Below are positions 21,992 to 29,376 of a stretch of DNA of 29,958 nt, piece by piece. Both the position numbers and the translations under genes were made by a program. The stretch's first letter is position 1, and every line of letters starts with the position of its first letter. Source of the stretch: Labilithrix sp. (GTDB lineage: Bacteria; Myxococcota_A; Polyangia; Polyangiales; Polyangiaceae); the NCBI GenBank assembly GCA_019637195.1, contig JAHBWA010000114.1:1-29958 (forward strand), given 5' to 3'. The notes under the pieces were generated by a model, which saw nothing but the letters and a program-made list of their open reading frames with translations, had not been told where the DNA came from and searched no databases.

Positions 21992-22642
21992 CTAGCCGTC
22001 GATCTCGTCGTCGCGCCCGTCGAGGAAGCGCTGGATGTAGCGCTGGAGCGCGTTGCGCATCGTGCGGTGCGTGACGATCCCGCTCAGGTCGACGCCCATG
22101 TGGATGATGGTCTGCGCGATCGCCGGGTTGATGCCGGTGAGCAGACAGCTCGCGCCGAGCAGACGCACGGCGCGCGCCATGCGCAGGAAGTGGTCCGCGG
22201 TGCCGGTGTCCATCACCTGGATGCCGGTGATGTCGATGATCGCGCAGTCCGCCTTCTTCTCGACGATCGCGCTGAGCAGCGCCTCGGTCATCTCCGCGCT
22301 GCGCGTGCTGTCGAGGACGCCGACCACCGGGAGGCACAGGACGCCCTCCCAGACCTCGATGATCGGCGTGGACAGCTCGCGGATCGCCGCGCGCTGGACC
22401 TCGATCATCGCGAGCTTCTCCTCGAGCTCACGCTGGTAGGTCGCGCTCCTTTGCTGCTCCGCCGCGAGCGAGCCGATCATCTGGTTGATGCCCTCGTAGA
22501 GGGTCGAGACCGGGTGATCGGCCGGGAGATCGCTGCGCAGGCGCGTCGTGTAGTCGCCGCTCCCGACGTCGGCCACGACGAGGAGAACGTCGGCGATGCG
22601 CTCGAGCATCGGGTCCAGCTCGTCTTCAGACACCGCGGCCAT
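21992..22642 (-). CDS. RsbR-like STAS-domain protein, paralog 2, about 85% amino-acid identity to the 15902..16555 product.
   Basis: ATG 22642 with GGAGG at a 7-nt spacing; the ORF track begins at GTG 22660. STAS block VLCLPVVGVLDSTRSAEMTEALLSAIVEKKADCAIIDITGIQVMDTGTADHFLRMARAVRLLGASCLLTGINPAIAQTIIHMGVDLSGIVTHRTMRNALQ is near-identical to paralog 1. The antisense spurious ORFs of the two loci (15972..16472 and 22053..22439) are also near-identical, which indicates a high-identity nucleotide duplication. Confidence 0.8.
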   Translation of the reverse strand: MAAVSEDELDPMLERIADVLLVVADVGSGDYTTRLRSDLPADHPVSTLYEGINQMIGSLAAEQQRSATYQRELEEKLAMIEVQRAAIRELSTPIIEVWEGVLCLPVVGVLDSTRSAEMTEALLSAIVEKKADCAIIDITGIQVMDTGTADHFLRMARAVRLLGASCLLTGINPAIAQTIIHMGVDLSGIVTHRTMRNALQRYIQRFLDGRDDEIDG

Positions 22643-22738
22643 GGCCGATCCTCCAGTCACTCATCGGTCGACGAGCCTCGCATGCAACATTCGTGGAAGC
22701 CAACATTGTCTCTCTCACTTGGACCTGCGCGCGCCGCG

Positions 22739-23188
22739 TCACTTGGCGTCCCGCGCGCCGTCCTTCGACGACCGGACGCGACCGCGCTTCGCCCCGCCGA
22801 CCCCCTGCACGGAGCGCTTGGCGTCGAGGCGGCCGATCCCGAGGGACTTGAACGCCTCCTCGAGGGTCAGCGCCGTTCGGACGACGCTCATGTCGATGCC
22901 CATGGTCTGCAAGGTGACCGCGACCTGGGCGTTCATCCCGCACATGATGCTGTGCGCGCCCATGAGGCGGGCCGACGCCGCGAGCCGGGAGAGGACGGCG
23001 CACAGGTGGCTGTCGACCATCCAGATCCCGGTCAGGTCGATGATCAGCCCCTCGGCGCCGCTGTCTCGTATGGTGTCGAGCACTTGGTCGACGAGACGCT
23101 CGGCGATCGCGTCGCTGATCTCGCCCTGGAGCGGGACGAGGACGTGATTCCACACGTTGATCACGGGTAGGCGGTCGCTGTCGCTCAT
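22739..23188 (-). CDS. RsbS-like single-domain STAS protein (anti-sigma-factor antagonist / stressosome scaffold type).
   Basis: Internal ATG 23188 (GAGGA SD): MSDSDRLPVINVWNHVLVPLQGEISDAIAERLVDQVLDTIRDSGAEGLIIDLTGIWMVDSHLCAVLSRLAASARLMGAHSIMCGMNAQVAVTLQTMGI. The remaining 370 codons of ORF 22739..24304 are Arg/Ser-rich antisense of cheB. Confidence 0.7.
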   Translation of the reverse strand: MSDSDRLPVINVWNHVLVPLQGEISDAIAERLVDQVLDTIRDSGAEGLIIDLTGIWMVDSHLCAVLSRLAASARLMGAHSIMCGMNAQVAVTLQTMGIDMSVVRTALTLEEAFKSLGIGRLDAKRSVQGVGGAKRGRVRSSKDGARDAK

Positions 23189-23264
23189 GGATCCTCGACG
23201 CGTACGTTCGCACGACTCGTACCGTCCCGTCGAGATGGCCGTTTCCTGTGATAAGGTGAGTTCC

Positions 23265-26856: not shown

Positions 26857-26937
26857 TCCGTTGAAAATGTTGGAATCGCCTAATCGTCGGCGACAGGGAT
26901 GGTCACGCGCCCCGTTGGCGGGTAGCATCCGGGCTGG

Positions 26938-27465
26938 ATGAGGGCCGAGTGTCCTGAAAGCGACGATGCCCTCTTCGAGCTGCGCTTCGCCCCGAGCGTC
27001 GCGCTCGTCTCGACGGTTCGTCGCTTCGTGAGCGATTTCTACGACGAGCTCCTGCAGGATCGCGACGCGAGCCACCGGCTCGGCATGGCGACCCACGAGA
27101 TGCTCGAGAACGCCGTGCACTACTCGTCGGACCACCGCTCGGAGCTCGTCGTCTCCCTGCACCGGGTCAGCGGCCAGTTCCTGGTCACGATCCGGACGAC
27201 CAACCGCGCCACCGACGAGCGCCTCACGAAGGTCCGGAGAGCGCTCGACGAGGTCGTGACCGCGGAGGACCCGATGGACCTCTACAACCAGCTCGTTCGC
27301 CGGGCCGCCAAGCGCACGGACGGCGGCTCCGGGCTCGGCCTCGGCCGGATCCGCGCCGAGGCGGATCTCGCGCTCTCCTACTCGATCGAAGGCGACACCC
27401 TCGTCCTGACGGCGGAGGGTCGCTTCCCACCGCGCCCCGAAACGCAACTCACGGAGTCACGATGA
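26938..27465 (+). CDS. HATPase_c-type partner-switch kinase, SiaB-like/anti-sigma-regulatory-factor-like, 175 aa.
   Basis: N-box ATHEMLENAVHYSS, G-box TDGGSGLGLGRIRAEADL. Overlaps the next gene by 4 nt (ATGA). Confidence 0.7.
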   Translation: MRAECPESDDALFELRFAPSVALVSTVRRFVSDFYDELLQDRDASHRLGMATHEMLENAVHYSSDHRSELVVSLHRVSGQFLVTIRTTNRATDERLTKVRRALDEVVTAEDPMDLYNQLVRRAAKRTDGGSGLGLGRIRAEADLALSYSIEGDTLVLTAEGRFPPRPETQLTESR

Positions 27466-27863
27466 CCGCTGTCGACATCCCTCGCATCGACGCCAACGAC
27501 CTGCGCGCCGCGTCGAGCTACCTCGACGGCAACCTCTCGTTGCAGTTCGCGGGGAGCGCCGACTCGCGGTCTCAAGGGGCGATCGAGGCGATGCTCGGGC
27601 GGGTGCACGCCGAGGCGCTCCGGCTCGGCGTGCCCGAGGTCTCGGTCGACTTCCGCGATTGCGACTTCGTGAACTCCTCGTGCTTCAAGGCGTTCGTCGT
27701 CTGGCTGGAGCAGATCCAAGAGCTCGAGACCGACCAGCAGTACCGCCTCCGCTTCTACTCCGACGACACCAAGGCTTGGCAGAGGAGGAGCCTGCAGGCG
27801 CTCTCGTGCTTCGCGATCGAGCTCGTCCACATCGAGTCGAAGCCCAATCGTGGCAGCAGTTGA
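27462..27863 (+). CDS. SiaC-like DUF1987-type small protein (the kinase/phosphatase substrate in Sia-type switches). Tentative.
   Basis: 133 aa. VSVDFRDCDFVNSSCFKAFVVWLEQIQEL...YRLRFYSDD parallels the DUF1987 pattern (LxLDLxxxYxNTSSxKxxxxIL...RWxYD). Its 3' end overlaps the cheA GTG start by 14 nt. Confidence 0.5.
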   Translation: MTAVDIPRIDANDLRAASSYLDGNLSLQFAGSADSRSQGAIEAMLGRVHAEALRLGVPEVSVDFRDCDFVNSSCFKAFVVWLEQIQELETDQQYRLRFYSDDTKAWQRRSLQALSCFAIELVHIESKPNRGSS

Positions 27864-29376
27864 TCTCCCGACCAGCATCGTCGCCCAGTTCCGGGCTGCG
27901 AGCATCGAGCGTCTCGGACGCATCGAGACCGCGTGGGCGGCGCTCACGCAGCGCGTCGGCACGGCGGAGGGCGAGCGCGACCTGTTCCACGACGTCCATA
28001 CGCTGAAGGGCGAGGCGCGCCTCGTCGGGTTCGCCGACGTCGTCCTCATCACCCAGCGCCTCGAGGACCTCCTCCTGGCTGCGCGCCGCCGGCGCTACCG
28101 CGTGACCGAGGACGTCGACGTCCTCGCCACGATGGCGATCCAGTTCATCCGGATGCTCCTGCGCAAGCGCGCCGGCGCGTCCCAGGGCGGGATCGACATC
28201 AACGGCTTCCTCAAGCAGATCGACGAGGTCCTCGTCGAGTGGCCGCGGCAGTCCGAGGCGCCCGACTCGAGCGGCGCCTACACGATGCGCCCGACGGAGG
28301 GCGGCAAGGTCTCGCTCGCGGTGCGGCAGCGCCTCGGGAGCGCGGCGACGCAGATGTACCTCGAGCTGCTCTCGTCGAAGAGCCCGCGCCTCCGGCGCGC
28401 CTGGGAGATCCTCGCGGGCGAGCTCGCGCAGCTCGACGCCGTCGCCCTGATGCCGCTCGTCCGCCGTCACGCCGCGTCGGCGAAGGACCTGGCGATCGAG
28501 CTCGGCAAGGAGATCGACGTCGCGATCGACGGGCCCGAGATCAAGGTCGGCGTCGAGATCCTCGACACGATCCACGGCGCGCTGCTGCACACGCTGCGCA
28601 ACGCCGTCGATCACGGCATCGAGACCCCCGAGGCCCGCGTCGCCGCGAACAAGCCACGGCGCGGGAACATCGTCGTTCGCTTCGGCATCGCGGAGGACTC
28701 CATCGGGCTGACCGTGCAGGACGACGGCGACGGGATCGACCTCGACGCCATCCGCCGCCGCGCCGAGACGCTCGGGCTCCTCTCACCGGAGGACGCCCTG
28801 GCCGCCCCGGACGCGACGCTGCTCGACCTCGCCTTCGCGCCGGGCTTCTCGGTCCGCGAGTCGGTGAGCACCATCTCCGGGCGCGGCATCGGCCTCGACG
28901 CCGTGCGCGCGACCATCGAGCGGCTCGGCGGGACGATCTCGCTCGAGTCGAAGCGCCAGATCGGCGTCACCGTGACGCTCCGGCTGCCGCAGTCGCGCCG
29001 CATCGTCGAGGTGCACCGCCTGCCGTCGACGCAGCCCGGCCTGGTCTTCGCGGTCCCGACGACGTGGACCGTGCGGACCGAGCGACGCCCGGACGCGCTC
29101 GATCCCGCCGCCGTGATGGGCCTCGGCCGCATCCACACGGGCCACGCCTCCACGACGCTCACGTACCTCGTGCTCTCGCGCGACGGCGACGACTACCCGA
29201 TCGTCGTCGGCGGCTCGGTCTCGCGGGTCGGCGCGGCGCGGCTCTGCCCGACCTCCCCCGACGACGGTCTCGAGGTCGTCACGATCGACAACGAGCCCGT
29301 CATCCTCATCCGCCCCGACACGTTCTTCCCGCCGGCGAGCAGCCGCCGGCCCGAGCTGACGCCCGGGCGCGCATGA
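27850..29376 (+). CDS. cheA: Chemotaxis histidine kinase CheA: Hpt (P1), dimerisation/HATPase_c, and CheW-like (P5).
   Basis: P1 with phospho-His motif FHDVHTLKGEARLVGF. N-box LLHTLRNAVDHGIE. G-boxes VQDDGDGIDL and SGRGIGLDAVRATIERLGGTISLES. C-terminal CheW-like beta domain ...LVFAVPTTWTVRTE...YPIVVGGSVSRV. Confidence 0.85.
   Translation: MAAVDLPTSIVAQFRAASIERLGRIETAWAALTQRVGTAEGERDLFHDVHTLKGEARLVGFADVVLITQRLEDLLLAARRRRYRVTEDVDVLATMAIQFIRMLLRKRAGASQGGIDINGFLKQIDEVLVEWPRQSEAPDSSGAYTMRPTEGGKVSLAVRQRLGSAATQMYLELLSSKSPRLRRAWEILAGELAQLDAVALMPLVRRHAASAKDLAIELGKEIDVAIDGPEIKVGVEILDTIHGALLHTLRNAVDHGIETPEARVAANKPRRGNIVVRFGIAEDSIGLTVQDDGDGIDLDAIRRRAETLGLLSPEDALAAPDATLLDLAFAPGFSVRESVSTISGRGIGLDAVRATIERLGGTISLESKRQIGVTVTLRLPQSRRIVEVHRLPSTQPGLVFAVPTTWTVRTERRPDALDPAAVMGLGRIHTGHASTTLTYLVLSRDGDDYPIVVGGSVSRVGAARLCPTSPDDGLEVVTIDNEPVILIRPDTFFPPASSRRPELTPGRA

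Follow-up and report, generated by a model that had tools for sequence, protein, structure and literature searches.

The SiaABCD system of Pseudomonas aeruginosa comprises the PP2C phosphatase SiaA, the kinase SiaB, the STAS-like protein SiaC and the diguanylate cyclase SiaD (PMC7647112, PMC8457831), and its unphosphorylated SiaC acts directly on the effector enzyme SiaD and activates it (PMC8457831). In the stressosome pathway of Bacillus and Listeria, the signal passes from RsbR/RsbS/RsbT to RsbU, then to RsbV/RsbW and finally to SigB (PMC12143880). Here we analyzed a stretch of 29,958 nucleotides from Labilithrix sp. (contig JAHBWA010000114.1; hereafter, the window), in which genes resembling both systems lie in one cluster with the gene of a short CheA-class histidine kinase (Table 1). 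The cluster suggests a CheA-class kinase that is switched by serine phosphorylation and not by receptors, and we put the probability at roughly 50% that it encodes a cascade of nested partner switches working by serine phosphorylation, with a receptor-independent histidine kinase of this class as the output. The nearest relatives of the window are metagenome-assembled genomes of Labilithrix sp. (Myxococcota, Polyangia, Labilitrichaceae).

The locus compares with the described systems as follows: First, it shares with SiaABCD a PP2C phosphatase, a small GHKL protein, a small STAS-fold protein with a predicted phosphoserine and an effector enzyme, all known here from the genes, and its sister loci carry dCache/HAMP-PP2C and REC-GGDEF proteins. 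However, the GHKL/STAS pair of the window fails the SiaB and DUF1987 family tests, the linked effector is a CheA-class kinase instead of a GGDEF cyclase, and the PP2C is cytoplasmic and follows an RsbT-like gene, whereas SiaA is a membrane protein with a HAMP domain. Second, RsbR-, RsbS- and RsbT-type proteins with conserved phosphosite residues, a PP2C gene after the RsbT gene and a second kinase/STAS pair downstream recall the Bacillus/Listeria pathway, but there is no sigma factor in the cluster, no RsbU_N match and only a short, non-globin RsbR N-terminus; moreover, the downstream pair is slr1658/slr1659-like instead of RsbW/RsbV and the output is the CheA-like kinase. Third, stressosomes with two-component or GGDEF outputs have been described outside Firmicutes in Vibrio vulnificus (VvD1/VvD2; PMC9237108), and a Moorella thermoacetica stressosome with a non-sigma output is cited in PMC12143880. 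In these systems, RsbT is thought to act directly on a histidine kinase or GGDEF protein that bears RsbU_N (PMC9237108, PMC12143880). The window shares with these systems the coupling of RsbRST to His-Asp or c-di-GMP signalling in place of a sigma factor, and the top match of its RsbR-type protein in the PDB is the V. vulnificus RsbR; in contrast to them, the window places a PP2C and a further STAS switch in between, and its kinase belongs to the CheA class. Fourth, the F7 'stage 1' chemosensory clusters and the Shewanella Che1 cluster with CrsR/CrsA are also CheA, CheB and CheY clusters that carry genes for an anti-sigma-antagonist (STAS) and a serine phosphatase. They have methyl-accepting chemotaxis proteins (MCPs), CheW, CheR and CheD, and the position proposed for their partner switch is below Che signalling, with RpoS under its control (PMC7184735, PMC9855816), whereas the window lacks all receptor-coupling genes and its switch appears to act upstream. 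Fifth, the HptB-HsbR-HsbA system of Pseudomonas likewise mixes an Hpt/receiver phosphorelay with a PP2C/kinase/STAS partner switch; there the phosphorelay is the input and HsbR fuses REC, PP2C and kinase (PMC5085249, PMC6482189), unlike the Labilithrix cluster, which contains no REC fusion of this kind. Sixth, Slr1658 and Slr1659 of Synechocystis, also an adjacent gene pair, represent the nearest curated families of both small proteins of the pair, albeit at scores of 24-50 bits against a cutoff of 100; for them, PMC7555055, citing Zer et al. 2018, gives a genetic phenotype only (recovery from iron limitation and derepression of pgr5). Already known are stressosomes with two-component or GGDEF output, Che clusters with STAS and phosphatase genes, partner switches fed by phosphorelays and the activation of an enzyme by SiaC (PMC9237108, PMC12143880, PMC7184735, PMC9855816, PMC5085249, PMC6482189, PMC8457831). 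Our literature search found no description of a partner switch with a linked, receptor-less CheA-class kinase as its effector, nor of an slr1658/slr1659-type pair linked to CheA.

Domain identities, catalytic and phospho-acceptor residues, gene coupling, co-conservation and an exchange of the PP2C sensor were observed directly. Domains were identified by Pfam, NCBIfam and PDB searches, and structural matches were obtained from AlphaFold (AF2) models with Foldseek. At the G+C content of the window (~70%) spurious long open reading frames (ORFs) are common; genes were called from third-position GC (GC3) with a GC1>GC2 rule. A preliminary description of the locus, made from the sequence alone, had listed four tight junctions, and all four are in the sequence: the Hpt and CheB-like genes overlap in ATGA, the stop codon of the RsbT-like gene and the start codon of the PP2C gene abut directly as TGAATG, the slr1658-like and slr1659-like genes overlap in ATGA, and the slr1659-like gene overlaps the CheA-like gene by 14 nt. 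Between the PP2C gene and the slr1658-like gene there is a gap of 81 nt. The CheY-like receiver of that description is indeed a single REC domain, whereas its orientation had been omitted: the gene lies on the strand opposite to the long co-directional run, divergent from the RsbT-like gene. A promoter and terminator scan of 21900-29958 was uninformative, with no promoter-like site and one terminator-like site where 1.3 were expected by chance.

The CheA-like kinase has a P1(Hpt)-P3-P4 core followed by an all-beta C-terminal domain of ~110 aa. It matches CheA structures in the PDB with an E-value of 6e-38, and its H50 and its N, G1 and G2 boxes are invariant. It contains no P2 domain, and neither Pfam nor a family profile of the C-terminal ~110 aa recognised CheW/P5 there. 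Its 120 closest homologs (34-99% identity, ~490-510 aa) carry Hpt and HATPase_c annotations only, with Pfam CheW and H-kinase_dim matches in 0/120, and the kinase is, judging from these homologs, a member of a distinct short subfamily. An exact-sequence lookup returned nothing for the CheA-like protein and only a 2.6-kb metagenome contig for the PP2C; the locus context was taken from homologs of the slr1659-like STAS protein.

The histidine of the stand-alone Hpt protein (in ASELHCLSGEA) is conserved in 13 orthologs, and the single receiver conserves its DD/D/S/K residues and has orthologs that adjoin the CheA-like gene in Polyangium and other loci. The CheB-like protein, a clear homolog whose receiver domain is intact, differs from Salmonella CheB (1a2o) in its catalytic triad, with S164 replaced by Gly (ASGTGG against GASTGG), H190 by Gln and D286 kept. 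This degenerate pattern is conserved in the orthologs, of which that of L. luteola (locus L018) reads AAGIGG and has no Ser; a register shift of one residue may retain the Ser in the alignment of the window protein. The protein is probably inactive as a methylesterase. With its catalysis probably lost, this homolog may function as a pseudo-enzyme under the control of its receiver. That it still works as an adaptation enzyme seems unlikely, as the positions of both S164 and H190 are replaced.

These data bear on the earlier proposal that stress or second-messenger state sets the gain of a chemosensory pathway. As stated there, no MCP, CheW or CheR was found in any window ORF scanned. The suggestion that these genes may lie downstream found no support in related loci: in six whose genes had been called (L002, L005, L006, L088, L089, L090), no annotated copy lies within 8-10 kb to the left or right, and the Che families were not among the recurrent ones in 118 unassigned flanking ORFs of eleven further CheA-bearing loci, where receivers (12) and sigma-54 activators (5) recurred. 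The negatives cover the window and the neighbourhoods of related loci. A genuine chemosensory pathway, with its MCP, CheW and CheR encoded elsewhere and the partner switches setting the gain of the array, would account for the clearly CheA-class P1, P3 and P4 domains, the presence of a CheB-family gene and Foldseek alignments that extend over the P5 region, and large myxobacterial genomes contain many orphan MCPs. Against it stand these negatives, the 120 homologs devoid of CheW, the C-terminal profile that finds no P5/CheW, the lack of P2 and the replaced S164 and H190 of the CheB-like protein; we consider such a pathway quite improbable and did not retain the gain-tuning proposal.

The second line of evidence comes from the small GHKL/STAS gene pair immediately upstream of the CheA-like gene. 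The two superfamilies slr1658 and slr1659 were the top family for 23/23 and 21/21 relatives, respectively, every score being below cutoff. In the window itself, the GHKL protein reaches 50.5 bits with slr1658_superfam (NF047703) and the sole NCBIfam match of its STAS partner is the slr1659 superfamily (NF047705) at 24 bits, the curated cutoff being 100 in both cases; the pair can at best be called remote slr1658/slr1659 relatives. The labels SiaB-like and SiaC-like (DUF1987), under which the two proteins had been introduced, were both rejected: SiaB_fam (NF038262/NF038264) gives 19.9 bits against a cutoff of 85, less than slr1658_superfam, and the STAS protein has no Pfam match to DUF1987 or any other family even at E=10. 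What remains of the 'Sia-type' assignment is its logic, seen in sister loci that combine PP2C, the pair and REC-GGDEF, in the top PDB match of the PP2C (6k4e, see below) and in a weaker structural match of the STAS protein to SiaC. The AF2 model of the 133-aa slr1659-like protein has a STAS fold with a predicted local distance difference test score of 91.5. Foldseek places the anti-sigma antagonists RsfB/SpoIIAA/RsbV first (E ~1e-6) and SiaC (6kko_C) 24th (E 1.5e-3). The family motif DF[MVI]NSSCFK is invariant, and Ser72 occupies the position of the phospho-Ser58 of SpoIIAA. The slr1658-like protein has an invariant N-box (HE.LEN) and an invariant GSGLG box, motifs from which kinase activity is plausible; the protein gave no significant PDB match, either as a single sequence or as a profile, and its assignment stays that of Pfam HATPase_c_2/DUF6272. 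The STAS family is large (782 representative clusters at E<=1e-10), and natural slr1658-slr1659 fusion proteins of 288-304 aa exist (P0245, P0281, P0296, P0373). Separately, the 360-aa protein P0388 combines an N-terminal region that is receiver-like by eye with a C-terminal slr1659-like domain.

Five loci (L058, L064, L071, L089, L090) carry two slr1659-like STAS copies. In these, the copy beside the slr1658-like gene keeps FMNSSCFK, and Ala stands in place of Ser72 in the copy that abuts the CheA-like gene (SAA, NAA, NAS, TAS or SAS), as would be expected for a dedicated, permanently unphosphorylated kinase-binding subunit. The same arrangement also admits a variant in which the slr1658-like protein itself binds and regulates the CheA-like kinase, as RsbW and SpoIIAB bind sigma factors, and the dephosphorylated STAS protein removes it; the non-phosphorylatable copy beside CheA could then be a pseudo-substrate docking site for the slr1658-like protein. 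This is the classical topology of partner switches, and an slr1658-like protein that keeps its N and G2 boxes and has lost the G1 Asp fits a role dominated by binding. Nevertheless, the gene that overlaps the start of the CheA-like gene is always the STAS gene and never the slr1658-like gene, two loci (L078, L089) have STAS-CheA without an adjacent slr1658-like gene, and in the nearest characterised analogue SiaC acts directly on the effector (PMC8457831). We regard this variant as unlikely and prefer a STAS protein that acts on the kinase.

The direction of signalling is suggested by the PP2C. The protein has the SpoIIE-type metal-binding motifs and a cytoplasmic N-terminal region of ~230 aa in which Pfam finds no HAMP or sensor domain. 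The designation RsbU-like is correct as to the SpoIIE-type PP2C domain, but RsbU_N has no match, and the nearest curated family in NCBIfam is SiaA, at 55 bits against an equivalog cutoff of 700. The top PDB match is 6k4e (E 9e-13), which we take to be P. aeruginosa SiaA. Outside the Labilithrix clade, the orthologous positions in Polyangia hold membrane sensor proteins of the architecture dCache_3-HAMP-PP2C; in Labilithrix the sensor part is missing and the gene directly follows the RsbT-like gene. It is thus the phosphatase that bears the sensor module, and this module has been exchanged. Because elsewhere the sensor is on the PP2C and never on the CheA-like protein, we read the PP2C as the input and the CheA-like kinase as the output.

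The flow could also be reversed, with the phosphorelay of CheA-like kinase, Hpt and receivers feeding the partner switches; the output would then be some target of the STAS or GHKL proteins that is not linked to the cluster. There are precedents for His-Asp signalling that feeds a partner switch, namely HptB-HsbR-HsbA, CrsR/CrsA next to Che1, and RsbK-RsbY (PMC5085249, PMC6482189, PMC9855816, PMC4574943); the cluster also has three receivers and an extra Hpt, and a paralogous locus of L. luteola (L017, see below) has a stressosome, a PP2C and the pair without CheA. On the other hand, no PP2C, kinase or STAS protein of the cluster bears a receiver domain, the CheA-like kinase has neither sensor nor receptor partners and hence no input, the sister loci have their sensor domain on the PP2C, and the Labilithrix cluster encodes no sigma factor or GGDEF output. 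To us, reversed flow has a low probability, and signalling from the phosphatase to the CheA-like kinase is the direction adopted below.

Stressosome-type genes lie upstream of the PP2C gene. The RsbR-type and RsbS-type STAS genes, divergent from the Hpt gene as noted in the preliminary description, are supported by Pfam STAS and by PDB matches to RsbR and RsbS. RsbR1 matches V. vulnificus RsbR (7o0i_B) with an E-value of 4e-30 and the Listeria/Bacillus RsbR structures with ~1e-28. Its Thr motifs VMDT and THRTM align to VVDT and TTNTM of RsbR, whose Thr residues we take to be the T171/T205 phosphosites, and its N-terminal extension (~95 aa) is HAMP-like by eye and not a globin. The RsbS-type protein has B. 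subtilis RsbS as its top PDB match (6jhk, E 1e-19) with its MVDS motif aligned to MIDS(59), i.e., the position of phospho-Ser59 is conserved. The RsbT-like kinase, so named before, has HATPase_c and HATPase_c_2 matches, and 41% identity to B. subtilis RsbT over 131 aa, a value that is a lead only. The RsbT-like gene lies in the operon divergent from the STAS genes and adjoins the PP2C gene in every Labilithrix-type locus, including the inverted ones. In L005, L013 and L018 the gene after the RsbR genes encodes a different small kinase ('kinase2').

The system extends beyond 21992-29376 to 15302-16570, where a second RsbR (RsbR2) and a second small kinase are encoded. RsbR2 is 85% identical to RsbR1, and kinase2 is 73% identical to the product of L005:3663-4136, the gene directly after RsbR in L005/L006, with further orthologs in L013 and L018; in L. 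luteola (L018) two adjacent RsbR paralogs are followed by the kinase2 ortholog. A block of ~5.4 kb splits the RsbS-RsbR1/RsbR2-kinase2 operon in the sub-lineage of the window, judging from L005/L006, where it does not lie between the STAS genes and kinase2.

The third line of evidence is conservation. A motif scan for the STAS family with one genome per species yielded 80 loci, almost all from Polyangia. Locus counts were taken from hidden Markov model and tblastn searches; the GC3-based caller missed genes in loci of lower GC content (and called none in L041, L047 and L055). In 79/80 loci the slr1658-like and slr1659-like genes are direct neighbours, a short CheA lies within 10 kb of the pair in 26/80, and in 19 of those 26 the STAS gene abuts the 5' end of the CheA-like gene. 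The pair also lies near the kinase gene in three distant, separately looked-up members (36-39% identity) of the CheA subfamily, and in two of them a STAS gene overlaps the kinase start. The full set (RsbT, PP2C, pair, CheA-like, Hpt, CheB-like and receiver) is present in nine GTDB species-level genomes, so that co-conservation of the Rsb-like genes and the pair with a CheA-class kinase, for which the preliminary description had called, was found; RsbS/RsbR were found in eight of the nine, the exception being the L014 locus. An inversion has reordered the cluster in L014 and L. luteola (L018) while the full-set genes are retained, and the flanking genes differ among the full-set loci. This synteny is most economically read as a functional link of the partner switch to the CheA-like kinase.

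Mere co-location of a stressosome, a Sia-like switch and an orphan two-component system in a region rich in signalling genes could find some support in the density of such genes in myxobacterial genomes, in the 81-nt gap between the PP2C and slr1658-like genes, and in the insertion that has split the RsbR/RsbS operon in this lineage. This reading is opposed by the recurrence of the gene set across nine species-level genomes despite changed flanks and an inversion, an abutment of STAS and CheA genes that is kept down to 36% identity, and overlapping start and stop codons, and we hold independent neighbours to be highly improbable.

Elsewhere in Polyangia the pair accompanies other effectors. 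In the group L020-L035 (e.g., L026:6284-9353), genes for a PP2C and a REC-GGDEF protein are divergent from the pair in a SiaA-D-like layout; in L046:7629-9416 the pair is beside a hybrid histidine kinase, and in L061:5848-9417 it occurs with a 508-aa sigma-70-family protein and an S9 peptidase. By these gene neighbourhoods, the slr1658/slr1659-like pair is a candidate portable regulator module of different effectors across Polyangia, as SiaB/SiaC are the regulators of SiaD (PMC8457831). Beyond this, we tentatively propose, as a real possibility, that a CheA subfamily of the Polyangia (hundreds of sequences) dropped chemoreceptors and CheW and came to be gated directly by a small STAS protein, whose serine phosphorylation would be controlled by a sensor PP2C and a GHKL partner, the stressosome being grafted on in Labilithrix as a cytoplasmic sensor.

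We infer the protein-protein contacts, the signs of regulation and the phosphotransfer partners of the cascade as follows. RsbR1, RsbR2 and RsbS would form a stressosome-like complex that holds the RsbT-like kinase. A cytoplasmic cue would free RsbT, which would then activate the PP2C encoded directly after it, and the PP2C would remove the phosphate from Ser72 of the slr1659-like STAS protein. The slr1658-like GHKL protein would counteract the PP2C by either re-phosphorylating or sequestering the STAS protein. Unphosphorylated STAS protein would bind the CheA-like kinase, probably at the C-terminal beta domain, at the place taken by CheW and receptors in arrays, and this binding would switch autophosphorylation at His50. 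The CheA-like kinase may hand its phosphate to the single receiver and to that of the CheB-like protein with its degenerate triad, and the stand-alone Hpt may serve as a relay or a sink.

Several observations weigh against this cascade. The pairing with the kinase is frequent and not obligatory, as 54/80 loci have the pair and no CheA-like gene within 10 kb, and in the Polyangium loci the CheA-like gene is ~5 kb away on the other strand. L. luteola has three pair-bearing loci (L017, L018, L062), one of which (L017; NZ_CP012333.1, 6247414-6267761) is a paralogous stressosome/PP2C/pair locus that holds RsbR/RsbS-like STAS genes, three RsbT-like genes, a PP2C and the slr1658/slr1659-like pair with no CheA-like gene within 10 kb. 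No STAS-CheA fusion was found among the 150 best representatives of the STAS family. The N-terminal region of the PP2C gave no RsbU_N match, and adjacency is what points to its activation by RsbT. The G1 Asp of the slr1658-like protein is replaced by Asn, and the protein may not be a kinase. Lastly, the Foldseek alignments of the CheA-like protein to P3-P4-P5 structures run through P5, and the C-terminal domain may be a remote, truncated P5 that docks to CheW and receptors encoded elsewhere.

If the cascade exists, it would be the first partner switch with a chemotaxis-class histidine kinase as its effector, and it would link a Ser/Thr switch to His-Asp signalling in the direction opposite to HptB/HsbR and CrsR. 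A STAS protein of 130 aa that replaces CheW and receptor would make a minimal system for the control of CheA P4. The locus bears on how a CheA-class kinase is regulated without receptor arrays, with a defined set of ~ten soluble proteins, and on stressosome outputs outside Firmicutes, for which it offers a candidate output chain wholly encoded in one locus. It also bears on the role of the slr1658/slr1659-type pair, which in Polyangia is tied to CheA-like kinases, GGDEF cyclases, hybrid kinases and a sigma-70-family protein.

Table 1 Genes of the signalling cluster and of the block inserted in it (positions in the window).
Feature	Position	Strand	Evidence or remark
RsbR1, RsbR-type STAS protein with N-terminal extension	21992-22660	-	Pfam STAS 49 bits
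RsbS-type protein, STAS only	22739-23188	-	Pfam STAS 46 bits
Stand-alone Hpt, 93 aa	23265-23546	+	Pfam Hpt 25.0 bits, cutoff 24.6 (marginal)
CheB-like protein, REC + CheB_methylest	23543-24643	+	Pfam CheB_methylest 142 bits, REC 73 bits
Single-domain receiver (CheY-like)	24659-25075	-	Pfam REC 47 bits
RsbT-like serine kinase, 136 aa	25120-25530	+	Pfam HATPase_c, HATPase_c_2
PP2C (SpoIIE-type) phosphatase	25531-26856	+	Pfam SpoIIE 131 bits, weak GAF_3
slr1658-like small GHKL protein, 175 aa	26938-27465	+	Pfam HATPase_c_2/DUF6272
slr1659-like STAS-fold protein, 133 aa	27462-27863	+	No Pfam match; AF2 STAS fold
Short CheA-class histidine kinase	27850-29376	+	Hpt + CheA-type P3-P4 core
kinase2, second small GHKL gene	15302-15790	-	Pfam HATPase_c_2 46 bits; start uncertain, open frame to 15901
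RsbR2, second RsbR paralog, N-terminal extension + STAS	15902-16555	-	Pfam STAS 48.5 bits
Inserted block, ~5.4 kb, probably outside the signalling system	16600-21974		Pfam calls
HMG-CoA reductase	17150-18271	-	In inserted block
Cytokinin-dehydrogenase-like FAD oxidase	18590-20083	+	In inserted block
Trp_DMAT aromatic prenyltransferase	20038-21255	-	In inserted block
REC+LuxR-type regulator	21348-21974	+	In inserted block

By its gene content, the inserted block may be a small biosynthetic island for a prenylated indole, and its REC-LuxR protein is only a possible phosphate acceptor. A family of ~250-aa proteins with an uncharacterised N-terminal part and a partial receiver domain (L005:12227-13030 (-), with orthologs in 11 loci) sits just beyond the CheA-like and receiver genes in several Labilithrix and non-Labilithrix loci and is absent from the window. 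Outside the cluster, the window encodes an ECF-type sigma factor (Sigma70_r2/r4_2; 3053-3601, minus strand), an FMO-like flavin monooxygenase (12131-13525, plus strand), a weak PP2C-like ORF (22.9 bits; 13419-14309, plus strand) and a TcdA/TcdB-type glycosyltransferase (14347-15147, minus strand). A protein of ~1000 aa (5083-8271, minus strand) matches the Major Vault Protein shoulder (52 bits) and contains Vault_3 repeats, and is a bacterial homolog of the eukaryotic vault shell protein.

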